Positions 17,134 to 30,245 are shown, counted from the stretch's first letter. The stretch is 64,000 nt of DNA from Candidatus Bathyarchaeia archaeon (GCA_038870975.1 JAVZJD010000001.1:800001-864000), one strand, 5' to 3'. Program-made: numbers and translations. Notes: generated from the letters alone by a model not told the origin.

Positions 17134-17925
17134 ATGAAGATCTGCATAGCTGGCAAGGGAGGCGTAGGTAAAACATTTGTCGCGGGTACACTCGCTAGAC
17201 TTTTCGCTAGAGGTGGTTTTGATGTTTTAGCCGTTGATGCGGACCCAAATCCAAACTTAGCATTATCACTGGGGATACCTGCTTCAGATGCGTTTAAAAT
17301 AACTCCTCTTCTGCGAGATTCAAGATTGATAGAGGAGCGGACGGGTGTAGCCCCCGGTTCTGGATGGAGTGTGATATTTAATATTGCCCCCGACGTTAGA
17401 GACATAGTTGATAGGTTTTCGATAAGAGGCCCAGACGGTGTTAAACTTCTCGTAGTCGGCTCCATCGACTACGGCGGTGCTGGATGCTTCTGTCCTGAGA
17501 CCGCTTTTCTGAAGACTCTCCTAGCCTACATAATGGCTAGGAGGCGGGAGGTTGTTCTAGTCGATCTGCAGGCTGGTCCAGAACCTTTTGGAAGAGGCGT
17601 TGCAAAACACGTAGATGCTATAGTAGTGGTTACAGACCAGTCTCTCAAATCTATGGAAACTGCTAAGCGGATTTTCCGCCTTTCCAAGGGTTTAAACGTT
17701 AGTAGAATAATGGCTGTCGTCAATAGGGTTACCAACCTCTCAGATGCCCCAATATCTACACTGGAGGAGATTGGCTTTGAAGTATTGGGTGTTATACCTT
17801 TCGATGAGTCTGTAGTCGAAGCAGATGAAAAAGGGTTGGCTCTTATAGATTATAAAGCAGACTCTAAAGCCCTTGAAGCAGTTAGAAAAATCTACAGTAG
17901 ACTTTCGTCTCTTTCCAAGGAGTAA
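17134..17925 (+). CDS. cooC: CODH nickel-insertion ATPase CooC
   Basis: GKGGVGKT, DADP, GCFC Ni-binding motif; next to cdhB. Confidence 0.9.
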   Translation: MKICIAGKGGVGKTFVAGTLARLFARGGFDVLAVDADPNPNLALSLGIPASDAFKITPLLRDSRLIEERTGVAPGSGWSVIFNIAPDVRDIVDRFSIRGPDGVKLLVVGSIDYGGAGCFCPETAFLKTLLAYIMARRREVVLVDLQAGPEPFGRGVAKHVDAIVVVTDQSLKSMETAKRIFRLSKGLNVSRIMAVVNRVTNLSDAPISTLEEIGFEVLGVIPFDESVVEADEKGLALIDYKADSKALEAVRKIYSRLSSLSKE

Positions 17926-17931
17926 TTAGGC

Positions 17932-18465
17932 TTAGACTTTAAGCTTATTTACCAGGTCTTCTAAGAACCGCTCCCATTCATCAATATTCATGTTTCTGAG
18001 GCTCCAAGAAGCATTCGGCTGGTAGAACCTGTCTAGGCTTATAGTTTTAACGGATTGAGCGAAGTTTTTAAGCCCCGTCAATATCAGCCACGCCATGTAA
18101 TATGGGAGGCCTACAACCACTAATGTTTTATAAGCTCCCTTTCCATCTAAACCCATCCACTCCGGGTCTGAAGCTTTATTCGCTACCTCTACCGGCGAAA
18201 TCCAAGCGGTATTCAACAGTCTACTCTTAATTTTAACGTAAACCGTAGAAGAAGTGGCAATATGCGCATCTACAGCTTCAGCTACGTCTACTATATAGTC
18301 TAGAAGAGAACGTTTAGAAAGGACCGTTGAAATTCCATCGCCACATACCATTAGTATTCTCCCACCCTGTTTGAGGAGTTCTGCTGCAAGCTCAGGCTTC
18401 TCAATTATTGTTGCTCTCCTAGTGCCTGGGACTTCAGCCTTCATCCAAGGCTCGCTACGCCACAA
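17932..18465 (-). CDS. cdhB: CODH/ACS complex epsilon subunit
   Basis: PW.KAEVPG, W.GLDGKG.Y, YQPNASWS; TTG at 18465 directly follows the cdhA stop. Confidence 0.9.
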   Translation of the reverse strand: MWRSEPWMKAEVPGTRRATIIEKPELAAELLKQGGRILMVCGDGISTVLSKRSLLDYIVDVAEAVDAHIATSSTVYVKIKSRLLNTAWISPVEVANKASDPEWMGLDGKGAYKTLVVVGLPYYMAWLILTGLKNFAQSVKTISLDRFYQPNASWSLRNMNIDEWERFLEDLVNKLKV

Positions 18466-18467
18466 AG

Positions 18468-20819
18468 CTATTCCCTCCTCCTGATGAGCCTGGGCAGTAA
18501 AGTCGGGTCTGGTATTGTCTTCTCTTTCCAACCCTTCTCCTTTAGAAGGGCTAGTATCTCATCTTTCATCGTTATGGGTATGTCGGCGGGGGTTCTAACG
18601 AAGAGGTGTACATCTTCTGGAAGTGTATTGTAGAACTTCTTGTACAAGTCTACATAGTGTGAAAGCTTTATGGCTCTACCCTTAGTAGTGTCATTCGGCC
18701 TCATACACAGCTTCGCTATCATAACAATGGCCTCCTCCTTCCTCTCAGCCATGTAGAATAGGTGTTCAGGAGCTGGTCCACAGTAGACTCTCTCTCCTGT
18801 TCTAGCGTTGTAGACAAACCAGTCCTCCTCTCTATCGGCACGTCCTAGTAGAGCCCTCCTATACTTAGAACCATGCGGTCCAACTATGACCGGGACTCCA
18901 AGCCTCCAAAAGCCTGAAGCTATTGATGCCGCCTTCTGGCTCATGGCGCCCCAAGCAACTCCAACGGCTCCAACTCTATTAAGTACGTAGTCCGCAATTT
19001 CTTCGTAATTCGCTCTCAATGGCCTTCTCGCGAATATGTTCGCTATTTTAATGGCGGCACCAGCTATGTGCGCGTTTGATATGCATGAGCCTACGTTTAC
19101 AACCCCCCCTGCGTCAAAGCCTCCTGGGAATCTCTCGTAGAGCGTCTTCCCCTCTTCGTCCTTATACATGCCTAGTGTCATAGCGGCACATCCAGATGCG
19201 AGTATTATGTAGCGTCTCTTGGCAAATTCTTCAGCCATTTCGTAGACTTCTCTCCCGCCGTATGCGTAGTTTGCGCATCCCACGAATGCTATAACGCCCG
19301 GTATTTCGCCAAAAACAATTGGTCCACCTACGGCTCTTATCTCAGTATCTTTTATAGCCCCTCTTCCGCTTCTTATCTTATAAGTCTCCCTCTCAAACAC
19401 GTCGTCAGCCCAAACTATCATACTGTGTATTGGAAGCTTCGCCCTACATACGCCCTCACACTTTACACATCCAATACATTGTTCATAGAGACTACTCAGC
19501 ATCGATAGGTCTCCTTTAGCCGCGGCAGTCATAGCATCCATTATGGGGAGGTTGTTTGGACACGTCCTCACACACTCCATACATTTGATGCATCGTTTAG
19601 CGTACTCTACTATGGCTTCTCTGGAAACGGGCTTCTCCTTATACTGCTTTCTCTTCGGAGCTAAAGCAATAGCAGCTTTAACAGCCACTTCTCCAACCTT
19701 CTCCGCGTCGAAAATTAAAACCCCATCCTCCCTTCCTTCAACCAAGTCTTTCACGATTTCATCTACAGGGTCTTCCGTACGGTCCCTCAAACCTTGACAG
19801 TTCTTCTCACTCGTAGCTATGAAGACAGCGTTCACTTTCCTAGCTTCATCTATTAAATTCGTCTTTATACACTGTTCATCGACAACGACAACATCAGGCA
19901 GTCCCGACCTTATATAGCGAACCTGCCAGGAGATTGGTCCGATTATCTTCGCTCTAGGATTGTATCTTGTAGCGTCATGTGCAGTGCAGCATAGGCCTGT
20001 AACTTCAACTTGTCCCAATAAACCACTTTCAATAAGGTAGTCGATTATACCTGCTGCAGATGGGACATTATGCCCTACGACCATTATAACTGGTTTAGAT
20101 TTATCAACGGTGCCGAATCCTAAGTCGACCAATGGGGCGTCTGGGTCTGACTTCGGGAAACCCATGACGGATATTTGCGCTATATCTGCTACTTCCATGG
20201 CTAGATGGTCCAGCATACCCGTATGGAGGACTTTAGATTCAAAATCTAGCGCATTACCCTCTTGACCAGTATGCGTAGAGGCAAGTAAGTGTATCAGCTG
20301 GTTATCCACATAGCTGAGCACGTCTTCAAGGTCTCTCAAAGTTCTAGGCCTTATACCTGTAACAAGTCTAGTTATAGGCGCTTCAACGCCGACCCCTTCG
20401 CCTAAGTCTATCGGGCTATCCCTCCCATATCTTTCGATTAAATATTCAACCAAGTGTTTGGCATGGCTCGTGTGGGTTGACGCCCCTATGCAACAGGCGA
20501 GTAGCACTATCCTAGACTGTTGGGCAGCCATATCTAAGCCACATGCCCCGCGTTTACCCATGGATAAGTCACACTTTCCAAAAGTGCATAGGCAGCATAG
20601 CTCGCAGAATGGCATGTAAAACGGTCTATAGCGTTTGAGGAGAATATGGTCCCAACTTCTGAGGTCTCTTATCGAAGGCATCGGTGTTGGACCCATGGGC
20701 TCTTCAAATTCTTCGTAGATTATACGGTCGATGGATATTTCAACATCTCGTAGCACTCCAATTGTAGTAGTAGCTTCTTTTAATCTAACGTAGAGGTCTT
20801 TTTTAACCACTAAGCTCAC
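18468..20819 (-). CDS. cdhA: CODH/ACS complex alpha subunit
   Basis: CELCCLCTFGKC, GHNV, LCCT, DEQC, two CxxCxxCxxxC motifs, GCANY, GSCISN. Confidence 0.97.
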   Translation of the reverse strand: MSLVVKKDLYVRLKEATTTIGVLRDVEISIDRIIYEEFEEPMGPTPMPSIRDLRSWDHILLKRYRPFYMPFCELCCLCTFGKCDLSMGKRGACGLDMAAQQSRIVLLACCIGASTHTSHAKHLVEYLIERYGRDSPIDLGEGVGVEAPITRLVTGIRPRTLRDLEDVLSYVDNQLIHLLASTHTGQEGNALDFESKVLHTGMLDHLAMEVADIAQISVMGFPKSDPDAPLVDLGFGTVDKSKPVIMVVGHNVPSAAGIIDYLIESGLLGQVEVTGLCCTAHDATRYNPRAKIIGPISWQVRYIRSGLPDVVVVDEQCIKTNLIDEARKVNAVFIATSEKNCQGLRDRTEDPVDEIVKDLVEGREDGVLIFDAEKVGEVAVKAAIALAPKRKQYKEKPVSREAIVEYAKRCIKCMECVRTCPNNLPIMDAMTAAAKGDLSMLSSLYEQCIGCVKCEGVCRAKLPIHSMIVWADDVFERETYKIRSGRGAIKDTEIRAVGGPIVFGEIPGVIAFVGCANYAYGGREVYEMAEEFAKRRYIILASGCAAMTLGMYKDEEGKTLYERFPGGFDAGGVVNVGSCISNAHIAGAAIKIANIFARRPLRANYEEIADYVLNRVGAVGVAWGAMSQKAASIASGFWRLGVPVIVGPHGSKYRRALLGRADREEDWFVYNARTGERVYCGPAPEHLFYMAERKEEAIVMIAKLCMRPNDTTKGRAIKLSHYVDLYKKFYNTLPEDVHLFVRTPADIPITMKDEILALLKEKGWKEKTIPDPTLLPRLIRRRE

Positions 20820-23593: not shown

Positions 23594-25027
23594 GTGTATG
23601 AGTTGGCTAGAAGTTTAAGCCCACTAGAGGTCTACAATCTCCTACCTAAGACAAACTGTGGGAAGTGTGGTGAAGCTAACTGTCTAAGTTTTGCAACTAG
23701 GCTTGTAAACCTTGAAGTTGAGATTGAAGAATGTCCTCCCTTGGTTGAAGAGGTGAAACACCGGGAGAACTACTTTAAGCTCAAAGACCTCTTGAAGCCT
23801 CCAGTCAAGGAAGTTTTGATAACAAGAGGGGGGAAAGCCGTTAGAATAGGTGGAGAATACGTCCTCTATCGTCACGAGTTCACCTATAGACGTCCAACGG
23901 CTATAGCTATAGACATATCTGACAGTATGACGCCTGAGTCTATAATCGACCGCGTTAAACAGATAGAATCGCTATCCTACCCGTATATCGGTAAAGAGCT
24001 TAAGCTAGACTTAATAGCCGTTAGGTCTGTTACGGGTGATCCTGAGAGTTTCCGTAAAGCTGTTAGAGTGGTATTGGATAATTCAAGCCTTCCCATTGTG
24101 CTCTGCTCGTTAAACCCAGATGTTTTAAAGGCTGGTCTTTCTGAAATGCCTGGTGACAAGCCGCTCATATATGCTGCTACCGTAGACAATTGGAGTCGAA
24201 TGGCTGAACTGGCTTTGGCATACGATTGCCCACTCGTCGTCTCTGCTCCAAATAATCCCGTCGCGCTTAAAAGTCTAGTTAAAACTCTACTCGAATGTGG
24301 CTTGAAAGACTTGGTTTTAGACCCTGGATGTATGGGCGGAGAAGGCCTCTACGATACAATTGTCAACTTCACTATGCTCCGTAAGGCTGTCTTCAGGGCG
24401 AACGATTCCCTCTTGGGTTTCCCTCTTCTAGGGGCTCCAATATCAGTCTGGCTTGAAAAGGGTAGAGCTTTAGATAGGAAGTGGGAGGAGTGCTACCTGG
24501 CGGGTATGCTCATAGTTAGATTTGCAGATGTTCTCATCATGCACAGTTTAGACGGTTGGGTTCTTCTACCGCTGCTAATACTTAGAGACAACATATATAC
24601 AGACCCTAGAAAGCCCGTTTCAGTTAAACCTGGGCTTTACAAGATAGGTACTCCGGATGAGAATAGCCCCGTTATGTTCACATCGAACTTCGCATTGACA
24701 TACTATACGGTTTCTTCAGACATACAGGCGGCTAAAGTAGACGCGTATCTCATAGTTGTCGATACTGAGGGGCTTTCAGTGACCTCAGCTGTAGCTGGAA
24801 GAAAACTCACGGCTGATAAAGTTGCTGAGGCTATTAAAGAGTCTGGTATTGAAAATCAGGTTAAACACAGATACCTCATAATTCCAGGTAGAGCTTCCAA
24901 GCTTAGTGGTGAAATCGAAGAGGCTACTGGTTGGAAGGTTCTAGTAGGACCATTAGACTCTTCAGAAATCCCTAAATTCTTGAGTGAAAACTGGTATGGG
25001 AAGAGACTCTGGGAGGCTGGAAGATAG
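23594..25027 (+). CDS. cdhE: Corrinoid Fe-S protein large (gamma) subunit 1
   Basis: LPKTNCGKCGEANC..CP, YTDPRKP, NFALTY, VGPLDSS. Confidence 0.95.
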   Translation: MYELARSLSPLEVYNLLPKTNCGKCGEANCLSFATRLVNLEVEIEECPPLVEEVKHRENYFKLKDLLKPPVKEVLITRGGKAVRIGGEYVLYRHEFTYRRPTAIAIDISDSMTPESIIDRVKQIESLSYPYIGKELKLDLIAVRSVTGDPESFRKAVRVVLDNSSLPIVLCSLNPDVLKAGLSEMPGDKPLIYAATVDNWSRMAELALAYDCPLVVSAPNNPVALKSLVKTLLECGLKDLVLDPGCMGGEGLYDTIVNFTMLRKAVFRANDSLLGFPLLGAPISVWLEKGRALDRKWEECYLAGMLIVRFADVLIMHSLDGWVLLPLLILRDNIYTDPRKPVSVKPGLYKIGTPDENSPVMFTSNFALTYYTVSSDIQAAKVDAYLIVVDTEGLSVTSAVAGRKLTADKVAEAIKESGIENQVKHRYLIIPGRASKLSGEIEEATGWKVLVGPLDSSEIPKFLSENWYGKRLWEAGR

Positions 25028-25028
25028 A

Positions 25029-25784
25029 GTGATAATTTCAGTAGCAGGTAAAGGTGGGACAGGTAAAACCACTATAGCAGTTTTAATCTTGAAAGCTCTG
25101 ATCGAGGAGACGAGTAAGACAATCCTCTTTGTAGACGCGGATCCGTCTACGAATGCTCCGGTTGTTCTAAGTATGCCTGTTAAGAAGACGGTTGGCGAAG
25201 TAATAGAGGAGTTTAGAAAAACGGTCTTAGATACTACGGAGCTTACCGTCGACAAGAGTAGGATTGTTGAGAAATGGGTTATGGAGGTTCTGATGGAGTC
25301 TCCTAGGTTCGACCTGTTGGCCATGGGTCGGGGTGAAGGAGAGGGGTGTTACTGCTACGTAAACTCTGTTTTAACGTCGATATTAGATAAACTGGCTGGT
25401 AACTATGACGTCGTTATAATGGATATGGAGGCTGGATTGGAGCATATAAGCCGTAGGACGGACAGAGACGTAGACATTATGTTTGTCATAACAGATCCTT
25501 CTAGGATGAGCCTTGAGACGGCTAGGAGGATTAAAGAGCTAATACCGGAGGTGCATGTTGAAATAAGAAGGCTCTATGTTATCGGCAATAAGATTCCGTA
25601 TGAGGAATTTGAAAGCTACGCTAGTAAAGTCGGAGAATTCGACCTACAGCTTATTGGAGTAGTACCTCCAGACCCTGAAATATTAAACTTCAGCGTGAAG
25701 GGTTTATCTCTTCTGAATATACCTGATAATTCCCCTTCCTATGAAGCCGTTAAAAAGATATGTCGTAAAGTCGGGTTAATCTAG
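25029..25784 (+). CDS. cooC: Second CooC/AcsF-type nickel-insertion ATPase
   Basis: GKGGTGKT, DADP, GCYC, DMEAGLEHISR; start uncertain (24984 or 25029). Confidence 0.85.
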   Translation: MIISVAGKGGTGKTTIAVLILKALIEETSKTILFVDADPSTNAPVVLSMPVKKTVGEVIEEFRKTVLDTTELTVDKSRIVEKWVMEVLMESPRFDLLAMGRGEGEGCYCYVNSVLTSILDKLAGNYDVVIMDMEAGLEHISRRTDRDVDIMFVITDPSRMSLETARRIKELIPEVHVEIRRLYVIGNKIPYEEFESYASKVGEFDLQLIGVVPPDPEILNFSVKGLSLLNIPDNSPSYEAVKKICRKVGLI

Positions 25785-25800: not shown

Positions 25801-26748
25801 CTGTCTCTTCCCCTTCCAATAGAGTCCTATAGAGGTGTTGTTGCAAGAGTGAAAATAGGAGCTACGAAATCCGAAGGAGGCTCGAGAAGTTACTCCACTA
25901 CCGTCGGTGGGGCTGGGACACTACCATTCTATACGTTTGAGGGTTTAAACCCTCCGCCTGTACTAGCGCTTGAAGTATACGACTATTTAGATAGTCCTCC
26001 AGTCGGTGTTATGGAGGCCTTCGGCGACGTAGTGATGAATCCTGTAGAGTGGATTAGGGTTATAGATAAGTTCAACCCAGACGTTATAAATTTAAATGTT
26101 AGGTCTATCTCTCCTTTATCTCTAAATAGGAGTGTTAAACATGCTATACGGTTATTGGAAGAGGCTTTACAGGCTACCAGCCGCCCATTAATGGTTACAG
26201 GTATAATGGACCCGATTCACACGGAAGATATATCTAGAAATAGTGAGTTTTTAAAACTAGCCGCTGAATCTTTCAAGGGCGAAAGGCTTCTCATAGGTCC
26301 TGTAACAGCTGAAGCATATGAGGCTGTTGCTGAAGCCGCTTTAACAAATGGTCATAATCTACTGGCCAAGTCAAATATGGATGTTAACCAAGCCATTAGG
26401 TTAAACGAGCTCCTCTCGGCTAAAGGCTTTTCAACCGACCGTATCGTCGTAGATGTTACGACTGGAGCATTAGGCTATGGAATTGAATACACCCTCTCCA
26501 CTATGGAGAGGCTTAGGCTTAGAGCTTTACAAGGGGATAGAATGGCTGGAAGCCCCATGGTATTCTTTGCCTCTGAAAACGTCTTCATAGCTGAGTTTAA
26601 AGAAACTCCTCTAAACCCTTCAGTCTACGAGGCTGTGGCCGCCGTGGCAGGTTTAATGTCTGGAGCAGACTTAGTGTCGTTATTCTACGTAGAAAGTCTA
26701 CACATGGTTAGGTCGTTTTTAACAGAATTTCCCTGGGGAGGCGGTTGA
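25801..26748 (+). CDS. cdhD: Corrinoid Fe-S protein delta subunit, divergent paralog 2
   Basis: GATKSEGG and GALGYGIEY motifs; similarity to CdhD1 extends upstream to an in-frame CTG at 25801 after GGAGG. Confidence 0.85.
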   Translation: MSLPLPIESYRGVVARVKIGATKSEGGSRSYSTTVGGAGTLPFYTFEGLNPPPVLALEVYDYLDSPPVGVMEAFGDVVMNPVEWIRVIDKFNPDVINLNVRSISPLSLNRSVKHAIRLLEEALQATSRPLMVTGIMDPIHTEDISRNSEFLKLAAESFKGERLLIGPVTAEAYEAVAEAALTNGHNLLAKSNMDVNQAIRLNELLSAKGFSTDRIVVDVTTGALGYGIEYTLSTMERLRLRALQGDRMAGSPMVFFASENVFIAEFKETPLNPSVYEAVAAVAGLMSGADLVSLFYVESLHMVRSFLTEFPWGGG

Positions 26749-26773: not shown

Positions 26774-28105
26774 ATGGATATATATAGGCTTCTGCCTAAG
26801 ACGAACTGTGGAAAATGCGGGTCGCCAACATGTATGGCTTTTGCCTTTAAACTAGCCCAAGGAGCTGTAACAGTCGATAAATGTCCATTTCTCACGGATG
26901 AAGCTAAACGTGCCCTAATGGGTTTAACAGCCCCCCCTGTAGCCGTAGTCTCTATAGGTCATGGGGGTAGAGAAGTCAAATTAGGTGGAGAGCGCGTTTC
27001 CTTCAGGCATGAAGATAAATTTTACAATGAGCCAGCTATAGCCGTAGAGTTAAACGACCTTATAGATGTAGATGCCCTTGAGACGGCTTTGAAGACGCTA
27101 AAAGAATATGAAGTTGAGAGAATGGGTCAAACTTTAAAGATAAATATGTTGGCCCTTAGAAACCTCTCAAGTGAGGATGATGCCTTCATAAGGCTGGTAG
27201 AGGCCGTTAAAGCTGTGGGGTACCCGTTGATAATCTCCACTGAAAACCCCACGTTGGCTAATAGGACTTTAGATATCCTCAAAGGCGAGCGCCCCCTCCT
27301 ACATGGTGCGTCTCTGAGAAATATCACTATCATGGCTATGCTCGCTAAAAGGTTCAACTGTCCAATTTCTATAAAAGCGTCTGACTGGAGGGAGCTTATA
27401 TCCTGCATCGATAGGCTTAAGGGGTTGGGCTTCTCGGAAATAGTCTTACAGCCTCCAGGCGATACGCTTAAACAACTCGTAGAGAATTTGACGATTATAC
27501 GTAGACTCGCTATCGACAAGAAATTCTCTAAACTTGGATATCCCACAATAGTTTTCTCTAGCGATGTTAAATCCAATGTGCCAGAACATCTAACGGTTTC
27601 AGCATTACTGGTTCGATATGCGAGTATAATCGTAGTTAAACCTGAAGTATTGCCACTTATACGTCCAGTAATGCTTCTCAGGCAGTCGATAATGATGGAT
27701 CCGAGGGCTCCGATATCCATCAAGTCAGGCCTATATAGGATAGGTAAGCCTAGTGAAAACAGTCCAGTACTATTAACGACAAACTACGCTTTAACATTCC
27801 ATATATTGAGAAACGACTTAGAAAATCAAAATGTGGACTGTCATCTCCTTGTGGTTGATACGGGAGGTCTCTCGGTAGCCTGCTCTGTAGCTGGCAATAA
27901 GCTCAAGCCGGACTCTGTTAGGCAAATGATTGAAGAAACGGATTTAGAAGCTAAGGTGGCACATAGAACGCTTGTGATCCCAGGTAGAGCAGCTAAACTG
28001 GCTGGAGAAATTGAAGATATAACTGGCTGGAGGGTTTTAATAGGCCCGTTTAATTCGAAGGATATAGGAGATTTTCTCAGAAAACATAATCTTATTGGAC
28101 GGTAG
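26774..28105 (+). CDS. cdhE: Corrinoid Fe-S protein gamma subunit, divergent paralog 2
   Basis: LPKTNCGKCGSPTC..CP, FRHE, DPRAP, TNYALT, IPGRAAKL. Confidence 0.9.
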   Translation: MDIYRLLPKTNCGKCGSPTCMAFAFKLAQGAVTVDKCPFLTDEAKRALMGLTAPPVAVVSIGHGGREVKLGGERVSFRHEDKFYNEPAIAVELNDLIDVDALETALKTLKEYEVERMGQTLKINMLALRNLSSEDDAFIRLVEAVKAVGYPLIISTENPTLANRTLDILKGERPLLHGASLRNITIMAMLAKRFNCPISIKASDWRELISCIDRLKGLGFSEIVLQPPGDTLKQLVENLTIIRRLAIDKKFSKLGYPTIVFSSDVKSNVPEHLTVSALLVRYASIIVVKPEVLPLIRPVMLLRQSIMMDPRAPISIKSGLYRIGKPSENSPVLLTTNYALTFHILRNDLENQNVDCHLLVVDTGGLSVACSVAGNKLKPDSVRQMIEETDLEAKVAHRTLVIPGRAAKLAGEIEDITGWRVLIGPFNSKDIGDFLRKHNLIGR

Positions 28106-29837
28106 CCTCGTTAACGATTTCCTTTATCTTGGCTTCTGCAACGGTTAAAGCCTTTTTAACGTCTTCAGGGCTTATCACACCGTTTGCAGTGGCTGTTTCA
28201 AAGATTCTCTTGGGGATTTTAAGGTTTTGAAATCTAAAACCCTCTTTGAACTTAAACTTATACTTTAAACCGTAGGTTATCCTTCCGATTTTCTCAAGAC
28301 TTTCAACATCGTGGCTGAAACCTATCACGTTTAAAGCCTCCAATACTGTATGCTTATCGTATATGTCTCTTGCGAATAGACATACACCGCAGCTTTCCAA
28401 TATACATCTCCACGCCTCTTCCTTTAAGAGGATCTCCACGGCGTTGACAGGGTCTATAGTGAAACCAAGCAGTTTTTGATCTAAACTGTATCCGGCGTTG
28501 CTCAGATGGCTATGTCTCGCCCCTATAGCCGTACCTATTATGAAAGCCAGTCCAGTATGGTAGCCTGCTAAACCATTTCCTCCAATTGCAACTAAGAATT
28601 CCTCGCCAAGGTTTTTATACGGCCTCCCTTGGGCCATAGACAGGTAGAATTCGTTAGGCATAGTTATAATATGCTTAATCATTTCAATGTATTTCTCTAC
28701 GTCCCCCCACTTGGGTTCAACAATCGTCTCATCTAGGCCTATCAATCCTTTTTCATATGCTTCAGTAGCCCATGCAAGCATAGTTCCAGTCATCATAGCG
28801 TCTAACCCGTATCTATCGCAGACAGCTCTAAGCTTAAGTACATCCATGGAGTTTCCAACGCCTAGGTTTGAACCCAACGCGTATATCGGCTCGTAGTCAT
28901 ATCCTACCTCTAAAGACTCGACTTCATGCTCATCTGCGAAGAAGCTTCTCAATATGGCTACGTGTTTACACCCTATTGGACATAGGGGGCAGGTGTTCTT
29001 CCTAATTAGGAGGTTGTCGGCGAAGTATTCTCCTGAAATTTGATCAGCATATTCGAAATATCCAAGTTTAAAGTTCATCGTTGGGAGTGCTTTAATCTTA
29101 TTTAAAGTTAAAACGTTCTGAGGTGTTCCAAGGTCGTGGTATTTACGCATCTTACCGCTTTTAACAACATCATCGTAGATTTTCTCGAACATCCTCTTAT
29201 ATGCATCTAGGTTCTTAACAGATATTTCACCGCATCCTGTGATACGTATGGCTTTAAGGTTTTTGGCGCCCATTACTGCACCCAAGCCTGTTCTTCCAAA
29301 GAAATTATACCCGTCTACGAGAACGTTGGCATAGTAGACAAAGTTTTCCCCAGCGGGTCCTATGGCTGCAGTCGACCGTATACCGCATGGGCTTGGTTCA
29401 TCCAAAGCCATGATAGTGCTTAAACTACTCATCTTTTTTAAAGAAGATGCACTGTTGATTTTAACCTCTCCATTGTCTCCAATATCAAGCCACACCGGTT
29501 TTGAAGAAGCCCCTATGATGACTATGGCCTCGTATCCAGCCAGTCTTATGGCTACCCCGAGTCTTCCACCAGCATGGCTTTCACCCAGGTTTCCAGTTAA
29601 CGGCGATTTGAACATGGCGATAGTCTTCGAGCATACTGGGTAAAGACCTATGAACGGCCCCGATGCTAATACGATCGGGTTTTCAGGTGCAAAGGGGTCT
29701 ACGCCGTCTGGGCAATATTCATTCAGTAGGTTTATTGCCAGTCCGGAGCCGCCTATAAACCTCTCCACAAGCTCTCTCCTATTTTCAACCCAGCTTAAGC
29801 CATCTGTCAAGTTTATGAAGAGTATATCTCCGTTCAT
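28092..29837 (-). CDS. Aldehyde:ferredoxin oxidoreductase family (W/Mo-pterin)
   Basis: KSPLTG.LGES.AGG, IGPAGE, GRTGLGAVMG.KNLKAI, CPLCPIGC, YEP, CDRYGLD. Confidence 0.9.
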   Translation of the reverse strand: MNGDILFINLTDGLSWVENRRELVERFIGGSGLAINLLNEYCPDGVDPFAPENPIVLASGPFIGLYPVCSKTIAMFKSPLTGNLGESHAGGRLGVAIRLAGYEAIVIIGASSKPVWLDIGDNGEVKINSASSLKKMSSLSTIMALDEPSPCGIRSTAAIGPAGENFVYYANVLVDGYNFFGRTGLGAVMGAKNLKAIRITGCGEISVKNLDAYKRMFEKIYDDVVKSGKMRKYHDLGTPQNVLTLNKIKALPTMNFKLGYFEYADQISGEYFADNLLIRKNTCPLCPIGCKHVAILRSFFADEHEVESLEVGYDYEPIYALGSNLGVGNSMDVLKLRAVCDRYGLDAMMTGTMLAWATEAYEKGLIGLDETIVEPKWGDVEKYIEMIKHIITMPNEFYLSMAQGRPYKNLGEEFLVAIGGNGLAGYHTGLAFIIGTAIGARHSHLSNAGYSLDQKLLGFTIDPVNAVEILLKEEAWRCILESCGVCLFARDIYDKHTVLEALNVIGFSHDVESLEKIGRITYGLKYKFKFKEGFRFQNLKIPKRIFETATANGVISPEDVKKALTVAEAKIKEIVNEATVQ

Positions 29838-30245
29838 TTAGACCTCCTCACCGTAGTATAGGACTTCGTGTGGACAGAATTTTGCGCACACTCCACACTC
29901 TATGCATATTATCGGCCTCTTACGCTCATCATCCCACTGTAGGGCTTTCAAAGAGCATGCATTTAGGCACGGTCTGTCTTCACAATTTTCACACTTTTCA
30001 GGGTTTAGGAGTTCTACTCCTCCGCCACTCCTCGGCTTTAAAACCTCATATGGGCATGCTGAAGCGCAGTCCGGCTCTTCGCATCCAGAGCATACTGTTA
30101 CTTTAAACCCTAATCCGCTTCTTGAAATCCTTATAGCTGAATACTTAACCGATAAGACACTTCTCAATTCTCTAGAACATACAAAGACACATGTAGCGCA
30201 GTTCATACATCTGTCTTGGTTCTTCACTATAAGCTTAATAGGCAT
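29838..30245 (-). CDS. Multi-[4Fe-4S] ferredoxin-like partner of AOR
   Basis: Four Cys clusters (CMNCATC..C, CSGC..C..CP, CENC..C..C, CIECGVC..CP); abuts the AOR start. Confidence 0.9.
   Translation of the reverse strand: MPIKLIVKNQDRCMNCATCVFVCSRELRSVLSVKYSAIRISRSGLGFKVTVCSGCEEPDCASACPYEVLKPRSGGGVELLNPEKCENCEDRPCLNACSLKALQWDDERKRPIICIECGVCAKFCPHEVLYYGEEV

Follow-up and report, generated by a model that had tools for sequence, protein, structure and literature searches.

A cysteine at the cap-helix position of a second CdhE in a Bathyarchaeia CODH/ACS cluster: probably a variant within a known family

[quoted passage not shown] The large subunit of the second pair, CdhE2, has a cysteine, Cys370, in the short cap helix that is expected to lie under the corrinoid cobalt. 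On balance, we think it probable that CdhD2 and CdhE2 (CdhD2E2) make up a second CFeSP in which Cys370 is a tolerated exchange and the methyl cation is transferred in the ordinary way. Judging from the sequence comparisons reported below, the initial annotation of this stretch was right about where the cysteine lies, the link that it drew to the mercury methylase HgcA is unsupported, and CdhE2 is a variant inside a known family.

Identity, fold and selection

CdhE2 is a true full-length CdhE, as had been proposed. It scores 488.3 bits against NF003195 (cut-off 306), the match joining residues 1-438 to profile positions 6-446, and contains both PF03599 (E 1.9e-88) and PF04060 (E 2.3e-14, residues 7-39). 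Across a 59-sequence alignment (A1), the cysteines of the CX2CX4CX16C motif (C12, C15, C20 and C37) are invariant, D362, G365 and V368 are invariant or almost so, and the corrinoid-binding motifs are retained. The AlphaFold2 (AF2) model has a mean pLDDT of 93.6, with a strand (E356-361) and then a helix (H368-373) assigned by DSSP; its best Foldseek matches are the CFeSP large subunits 4djd_C (E 2e-47), 4c1n, 2ycl and 9fzy_F (TM-score 0.79), at identities to the solved proteins of 31-35%, and the corresponding phmmer E-values range from 1e-81 to 1e-95. Like the AcsC/CfsA/CdhE gamma subunits of known structure (2H9A, 2YCL and 4C1N from C. hydrogenoformans, 4DJD from Moorella thermoacetica and 9FZY from C. 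autoethanogenum), CdhE2 consists of three domains, with the [4Fe-4S] cluster at the N terminus, a TIM barrel, and at the C terminus a Rossmann corrinoid domain that includes a cap helix; a small-subunit gene adjoins its own. It differs from them in having Cys and not Thr under cobalt and in being encoded by the second of two copies within an archaeal cdh operon; CdhD2, its partner, has the short form seen in bacterial AcsD.

Both genes of the second pair are under purifying selection and are working genes, since the ratio of nonsynonymous to synonymous substitution rates (dN/dS) is 0.135 for cdhE2 and 0.106 for cdhD2 (0.061 and 0.102 for the primary copies), and since TGC and TGT are both found as the Cys codon among orthologs.

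Position of Cys370

Translation of the open reading frame at 26774-28105 gives DTGGLSVACSVAGNK, with Cys370 encoded by TGC, and CdhE1 reads DTEGLSVTSAVAGRK, where Ser398 (TCA, 24785-24787) occupies the equivalent position. The motif, residue number and codon coordinates first reported for CdhE2 proved exact, as did the motif reported for CdhE1. In a phmmer search of Protein Data Bank (PDB) chains, CdhE2 residues 309-411 align without a gap to the CFeSP of C. hydrogenoformans (2h9a/2ycl), which places Cys370 on Thr374 of that chain and, in 4djd and 9fzy, on the only Thr that their SVLT cap helix contains. A MAFFT alignment of 35 HgcA and 234 CdhE corrinoid domains puts Cys370 and the Cys of the HgcA NVWC motif in one column, which is Cys in 35/35 HgcA sequences. 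The two alignments bear out the claim that the position is equivalent to Cys93 of HgcA and Thr374 of CFeSP.

In CFeSP crystal structures the Thr oxygen is 3.2-4.6 Å from cobalt and belongs to the closest residue of the lower face (PMC4934906); another report gives 2.8-4.1 Å, with 3.2 Å in the best density map (PMC13331322). Because the homologous Thr is the residue nearest cobalt, we judge that Cys370 faces the metal, being by homology its nearest residue, and does not point away from it. The legend to Fig. 6 of PMC13331322 numbers this residue Thr378 in Moorella and Thr375 in C. autoethanogenum, while our alignment of the PDB chains has the cap-helix Thr of 4djd at 375 and that of 9fzy at 378; on this numbering the two labels may have been swapped.

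Distribution of the cysteine

Among 235 CdhE/AcsC sequences, the site is occupied by Thr (104), Val (52), Ser (42), Cys (17), Asn (10), Ala (6), Pro (2) or Gly (1), and in a sample of metagenome loci by Thr (57), Asn (8), Val (5), Ser (3) or Cys (1). The metagenome scan used generic Fe-S motif patterns and returned mostly bacterial AcsC; it serves as a background sample without new clade members, and its sole Cys bearer is the window's own organism.

Within the CdhE2 clade (100% to 50% identity), Cys is present in 11 of the 12 clusters formed at 90% identity, and the exception, P0018, has Thr within the same cdhC-D1-E1-D2-E2 / AOR-Fd gene order (Fd, ferredoxin). The members of a second group share about 42% identity with CdhE2; their co-directional (Fd-)AOR-CdhD-CdhE operons lie away from cdhABC, and the site is Cys in four cases (P0029, P0031, P0127 and G094) and Thr in two (P0301 and P0033). 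Joining this group to the CdhE2 clade was not rejected by the approximately unbiased (AU) test (log-likelihood, lnL, +9.7; p 0.67), and the two together comprise 14 Cys and 3 Thr clusters at 90% identity. Conservation of the cysteine among CdhE2 orthologs and their sister group is thus not strict.

Neither is the cysteine special to CdhE2, as it occurs sporadically in ordinary CdhE. On the IQ-TREE tree the Cys state needs at least 4-5 changes, and when 401 genomes of the phylum were scanned for the motif pattern, the Cys form turned up in five families (the genome search at the 'class' level covered 17 genomes, identical to the order set). In family f30, three genomes that are 94-97% complete (G203, G215 and G227) have one CdhE match each, at 622-625 bits, and all three are Cys-bearing; the gene lies downstream of cdhA and cdhC on one contig and the same strand in G215 and G227, and the cdhA match of G203 is divided between two contigs. 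A further genome (G305) has one full-length Cys-bearing match and, where a contig ends, an N-terminal fragment scoring 43 bits, and a full cooC-cdhABCDE operon (L154) ends in the Cys-bearing P0140 (UCD96078.1). These proteins, together with G021 and P0322, have the same Cys at the same site, and are of the CdhE1 type (52-60% identical to CdhE1), the only CdhE found in their genomes, and encoded in cdhABCDE operons whose CdhD is long; the preceding residue is Asp or Glu (AVDC, AVEC), versus Ala in CdhE2. P0322, which has Cys, shares 85% identity with the Ser-bearing P0324 and only 73% with P0140 (Cys), and Ser and Cys are interchanged among close relatives of ordinary CdhE. Because Cys is found in the sole CdhE of complete acetyl-CoA decarbonylase/synthase (ACDS) operons, a cysteine at the site allows normal methyl transfer to ACS. 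We found no described Cys-bearing CdhE, nor a tandem second CdhDE, in the literature searched.

A CdhE identical to that of L154 is also present, with its cdhD, in a complete 1.51 Mb Bathyarchaeota genome (CP070765.1; L153:5977-9437), where the two genes follow a 242-aa product with a C-terminal ACS domain alone and there is no adjacent cdhAB.

A tolerated exchange or a switchable ligand

Under the interpretation that we favour, CdhE2 keeps its [4Fe-4S] domain, TIM barrel and corrinoid domain, with Cys370 predicted on the cap helix directly under cobalt, where other CFeSPs carry Thr, Ser or Val. A Ser codon would have become a Cys codon by one base (TCN to TGY), a change presumably fixed early in the paralogue lineage. 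The thiol of Cys370 would then do the work of Thr or Ser in filling the lower axial space and excluding water and base from cobalt, and CdhE2 would carry out methyl-cation transfer as usual and not HgcA-type chemistry.

Several points weigh against this interpretation. The Thr oxygen of crystal structures comes within 2.8-4.6 Å of cobalt (PMC13331322, PMC4934906). A thiolate at the same 2.8-4.6 Å could coordinate Co(II) or CH3-Co(III), and compatibility with ACDS would also permit a switchable Cys-on/Cys-off ligand. The His-on/His-off switch of MetH is an analogue of such a ligand. Cys370 is, in addition, one of seven positions that discriminate the clade, being present in 88% of it versus 1% elsewhere, and it is kept to about 40-50% identity, which exceeds the expectation for a neutral site.

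These points lead to the strongest alternative, which we regard as possible and clearly the less likely: that the Cys370 thiolate is a switchable lower axial ligand, on in the CH3-Co(III) or Co(II) state and off in Co(I). Such a ligand would tune the redox potential and the Co-C bond strength of a specialised methyl carrier, and it could extend to other Cys-bearing CdhE lineages. The geometry is plausible, with Cys370 nearest to cobalt by homology; the cysteine is a signature of the paralogue clade, held under purifying selection with synonymous TGC/TGT change; and Co-S(Cys) ligation at the homologous position of HgcA is experimentally established, with a Co-S distance of 2.5 Å in the methylated protein by X-ray absorption measurements (EXAFS; PMC11588087). 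However, Thr is found instead of Cys in orthologs of the same gene order and of the same AOR-CdhD-CdhE operon type, Ser and Cys replace each other between CdhEs that are 85% identical, and the HgcA hallmarks flanking the cysteine are absent. Other working CdhE proteins have Val, Ala or Pro at the site, and a ligand is therefore not required there. The preferred reading remains that of an exchanged residue in a CFeSP of ordinary function.

Relation to HgcA

HgcA is a membrane-bound protein that is hard to study, with a C-terminal five-helix transmembrane domain and without the Fe-S and TIM-barrel domains, and its methyl donor is S-adenosylmethionine. It has reportedly been treated by Parks in 2013, Cooper in 2020 and Zheng in 2024, and to our knowledge it is so far the sole methyltransferase with a proven Co-S(Cys) bond to the methylated corrinoid. 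CdhE2 is like HgcA in having a homologous corrinoid-binding domain with Cys at the identical cap-helix column, the HgcA cysteine being the Co-S ligand in the methyl-Co(III) state. Against NF040863, the model of the HgcA mercury methylase (cut-off 275), CdhE2 scores 95.8 bits, over residues 311-439 only, and CdhE1 88.2. The CdhE2 cap helix reads SVACS versus N(V/I)WC(A/S) in HgcA, where Val and Cys alone match, and both the Trp before and the AAGKG after the cysteine, hallmarks of HgcA, are missing in CdhE2 (the 120 HgcA genes, from which the 35 aligned domains were drawn, were fetched from genomes with a degenerate DNA pattern for NVWCAAGKG, and have the flanking motif by construction).

CdhE2 has no transmembrane domain, 443/443 residues being on the soluble CFeSP fold with nothing past the corrinoid domain. 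No HgcB lies near it, the nearest ferredoxin (29838-30245) scoring 38 bits versus a cut-off of 99 and ending in YYGEEV. By the score against the hidden Markov model (HMM), the motif, and the absence of a transmembrane domain and of HgcB, CdhE2 is ruled out as an HgcA, and no HgcA was found in the genome (1.85 Mb, 93% complete); the earlier statement that this is not HgcA itself, based on the lack of NVWCA, transmembrane domain and HgcB, thus holds. The polyferredoxin at 29838-30245 contains CIECGVCAKFCP, which resembles the C(M/I)ECGA of HgcB, and is without the C-terminal Cys pair. A sequence search of PDB chains returned no solved HgcA at E <= 0.01, and the only HgcA match of Foldseek is 9a0b, the 2020 integrative HgcAB model.

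It had also been suggested that CdhE2 is an evolutionary intermediate toward HgcA, or a methyltransferase with a different acceptor, which we read as one other than ACS, such as a metal or metalloid. We consider this very improbable. Beyond the cysteine in the same column, what speaks for it is that the CdhE2 corrinoid domain ranks 5/234 in raw identity to HgcA (32.0% versus a median of 27.7%), and that a tree constrained to unite HgcA with the CdhE2 clade, computed on 135 columns of the corrinoid domain with the Cys column removed, was not rejected by the AU test (lnL +5.5, p-AU 0.64). A control that united HgcA with bacterial AcsC was not rejected either (lnL +7.8, p-AU 0.70), and both constrained trees were better than the quick free search. 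As the control fits at least as well, the domain tree is unable to place HgcA. HgcA is monophyletic, and in the FastTree tree of the corrinoid domain its path length to CdhE2 is 2.79, versus a family median of 2.78, a result that means only that no support was found for CdhE2 being nearer to HgcA. The positions specifically common to CdhE2 and HgcA are five and mostly conservative, the consensus of the CdhE2 clade matches 42/96 HgcA-conserved columns (41/96 for other CdhE), and the HgcA model scores CdhE2 and CdhE1 alike. Moreover, among the genomes searched, members of the clade were found only in the G094 lineage and in relatives belonging to a single archaeal order, and cdhE2 lies inside a cdh operon, with no transmembrane domain, HgcB or genomic HgcA to accompany it. 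The suggestion of an intermediate toward HgcA accordingly finds no phylogenetic support, be it from the 135-column trees, the AU control or the path length. The CdhE/HgcA split itself has been placed very deep (PMC10083202), whereas the CdhE2 clade turned up in no more than a few families of Bathyarchaeota.

CdhD2 and the role of the second pair

Like the archaeal ACDS gamma-delta corrinoid iron-sulfur protein (CoFeSP; Methanosarcina CdhDE, and here CdhD1-CdhE1), CdhD2E2 belongs to the same families and is encoded in the same operon, and presumably both proteins serve the same single ACS (CdhC). Unlike the ACDS CoFeSP, CdhD2 is without the N-terminal coiled-coil region, and CdhE2 is 35-39% identical to CdhE1-type proteins. 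The difference is evident in profile comparisons, where CdhD2 enters TIGR00381 at position 78 and NF003375 at position 119, versus positions 3 and 82 for CdhD1, and it scores under every NCBIfam CdhD cut-off (for example, 195 versus 280); what is lacking is the N-terminal region of archaeal CdhD. In Methanosarcina acetivorans, this region oligomerises CoFeSP into the coiled-coil scaffold of ACDS (bioRxiv 10.64898/2026.07.07.736967). Since CdhD2 is without the scaffolding region, CdhD2E2 is probably a free carrier; it would be a bacterial-style methyl carrier for the single acetyl-CoA synthase of the genome, and from sequence features it is probably free-standing and serves CdhC.

The cdhD2-cdhE2 pair occurs in the same order in 5/6 genomes of the genus (the window's included) and in 1/2 genomes of the sister genus, among them Bathyarchaeota metagenome-assembled genome B24, and the reading frames are intact in 6/6 family genomes having the pair. 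The idea that the second pair is a decaying or redundant duplicate, with the cysteine a random substitution in a gene losing its function, deserves still less credence: although the evolutionary rate of CdhE2 and CdhD2 is about double that of CdhE1 and CdhD1 (identities to G002 of 88% and 89% versus 95% and 93%, and to G007 of 65% and 67% versus 81% and 80%) and CdhD2 falls below all NCBIfam CdhD cut-offs, the frames are intact, gene order is conserved, dN/dS is 0.11-0.14, the corrinoid-binding motifs persist together with all four Fe-S cysteines, and the fold is predicted with high confidence.

In relatives from sister families there is a second, AcsB-like ACS of about 700-730 aa with a prismane-type N-domain, accompanied by a short CdhD and a CdhE (L144, G013:C16; L149, G010:C11; L145, G008:C29; L160; L161; L192), and these sets lie next to the canonical cdhABCDE operon or at a distance from it. 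Sets of this kind, with an additional AcsB-like ACS, a short CdhD and a CdhE, are reported as well in a 2026 preprint (bioRxiv 10.64898/2026.07.07.736967). The window's family has a short CdhD and CdhE pair, yet one ACS, and it appears to have kept only the CFeSP part.

Implications

If Cys370 is non-ligating, as we favour, a cysteine about 3 Å under cobalt would be compatible with the ordinary methyl transfer of the acetyl-CoA pathway, and Cys alone would be no basis for calling an HgcA-like function in metagenomes. More tentatively, the Cys-bearing CFeSPs, namely those of the CdhD2E2 clade and, as an independent case, certain Bathyarchaeota proteins that are the only CdhE of their genome, may use a switchable Co-S(Cys) ligand. 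Were that so, they would be the first examples of thiolate ligation among corrinoid iron-sulfur proteins that are soluble and can be crystallised, providing a soluble model and a natural Thr/Ser/Cys series for trans-ligand tuning of Co-C chemistry, in which orthologs with Thr or Ser, found in operons of the same types, are built-in controls; the paralogue could then be suited to a methyl donor other than methyl-tetrahydromethanopterin (CH3-H4MPT). This work also marks out, within Bathyarchaeota, a second CFeSP lineage that is probably free-standing, and the links to AOR-type oxidoreductase genes that recur in it.

Gene cluster and neighbouring genes

The features of the cluster are listed in Table 1. 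The cdhE2 start follows the cdhD2 stop after 25 nt, the AOR gene and cdhE2 overlap by 14 bp at their 3' ends, stop codons included, and the operon position of cooC2 is the same in relatives. Besides its one ACS, the genome has four PF03599 proteins (D1, E1, D2 and E2), two MtrH homologues and one small B12-binding protein, and no AcsE-type pterin methyltransferase was found in its 1.85 Mb (93% complete).

Table 1. Coordinates of the CODH/ACS cluster and of the CdhE2 features in the window
Feature	Position	Strand	Evidence or remarks
cooC1	17134-17925	+	Part of the window's CODH/ACS cluster
cdhB, CODH subunit	17932-18531	-	Prismane/CO_dh Pfam matches for cdhA + cdhB; divergently transcribed
cdhA, CODH subunit	18468-20819	-	Prismane/CO_dh Pfam matches for cdhA + cdhB; divergent transcription
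cdhC, sole acetyl-CoA synthase detected in the genome	20917-22341	+	PF03598 + PF19436; single match in whole-genome search
cdhD1, canonical CdhD with N-terminal extension, 410 aa	22353-23585	+	NF003375 535 bits, TIGR00381 475 bits
cdhE1, canonical CdhE	23594-25027	+	NF003195 586 bits; Ser398 at the cap-helix site
cooC2, CooC/AcsF-type P-loop ATPase between both CFeSP gene pairs	24984-25784	+	Pfam CbiA, AAA_31
cdhD2, short small subunit, 299 aa	25849-26748	+	PF03599 at 5e-29; dN/dS 0.106
cdhE2, large subunit of the second corrinoid iron-sulfur protein, 443 aa	26774-28105	+	PF04060 + PF03599
[4Fe-4S] motif of CdhE2, Cys12/Cys15/Cys20/Cys37	26807-26884	+	Invariant columns, alignment A1; codons checked
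CdhE2 motif DTGGLSVACSVAGNK, residues 362-376, end of strand beta2 and cap helix	27857-27903	+	
Predicted CdhE2 cap helix, residues 368-373	27875-27892	+	AF2 model, DSSP
CdhE2 Cys370 codon TGC	27881-27883	+	Cap-helix residue under the corrinoid cobalt, by homology
AOR-family tungsten-type oxidoreductase	28092-29837	-	AFOR_N, AFOR_C; convergent on cdhE2
Polyferredoxin	29838-30245	-	Fer4 matches; AOR-linked

The residue numbering of CdhE2 presumes that translation starts at the ATG of position 26774. In the public annotation, the protein (P0007, 451 aa) begins 8 codons upstream, at ATC 26750, 8 nt past a GGAGG. The 'SPM' stretch ahead of the Met at 26774 is conserved in orthologs, and the true start is uncertain, because there is no in-frame ATG, GTG or TTG between the stop at 26720 and 26774.

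The neighbourhood of AOR and polyferredoxin next to CFeSP genes is conserved in relatives. Across the archaeal order, AOR and polyferredoxin genes converge on the last CFeSP gene of CODH/ACS clusters (window 28092-30245, minus strand; L143, L147, L144, L149, L156, L157, L158 and L192), whether that gene is a CdhE2 (Cys), a CdhE1 (Ser) or an AcsB-linked CdhE (Thr). In one lineage, the genes form overlapping, co-directional (Fd-)AOR-CdhD-CdhE operons with no cdhABC nearby, seen in four separate sources (L159:930-5416; L155:2-3000; L189, G094:C22; L271:5274-9368), of which three have Cys at the CdhE site and the fourth has Thr. It is ruled out that AOR partners the Cys form specifically, since AOR-Fd also flanks the Ser and Thr types and the AOR-CdhD-CdhE operon also occurs with Thr. 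A stand-alone CFeSP joined in one operon to a tungsten-type aldehyde oxidoreductase (AOR) seems undescribed so far; one idea is that aldehyde oxidation by AOR might feed low-potential electrons to the activation of Co(II) to Co(I).

In the genome whose CdhE2 ortholog carries Thr (GCA_027492035.1; L156:10409-12443), genes for an MtmB-family methyltransferase and for a small corrinoid protein that binds B12 lie between cdhE2 and cooC/AOR-Fd, an insertion which hints that the second CFeSP may be linked to the use of methylated substrates.

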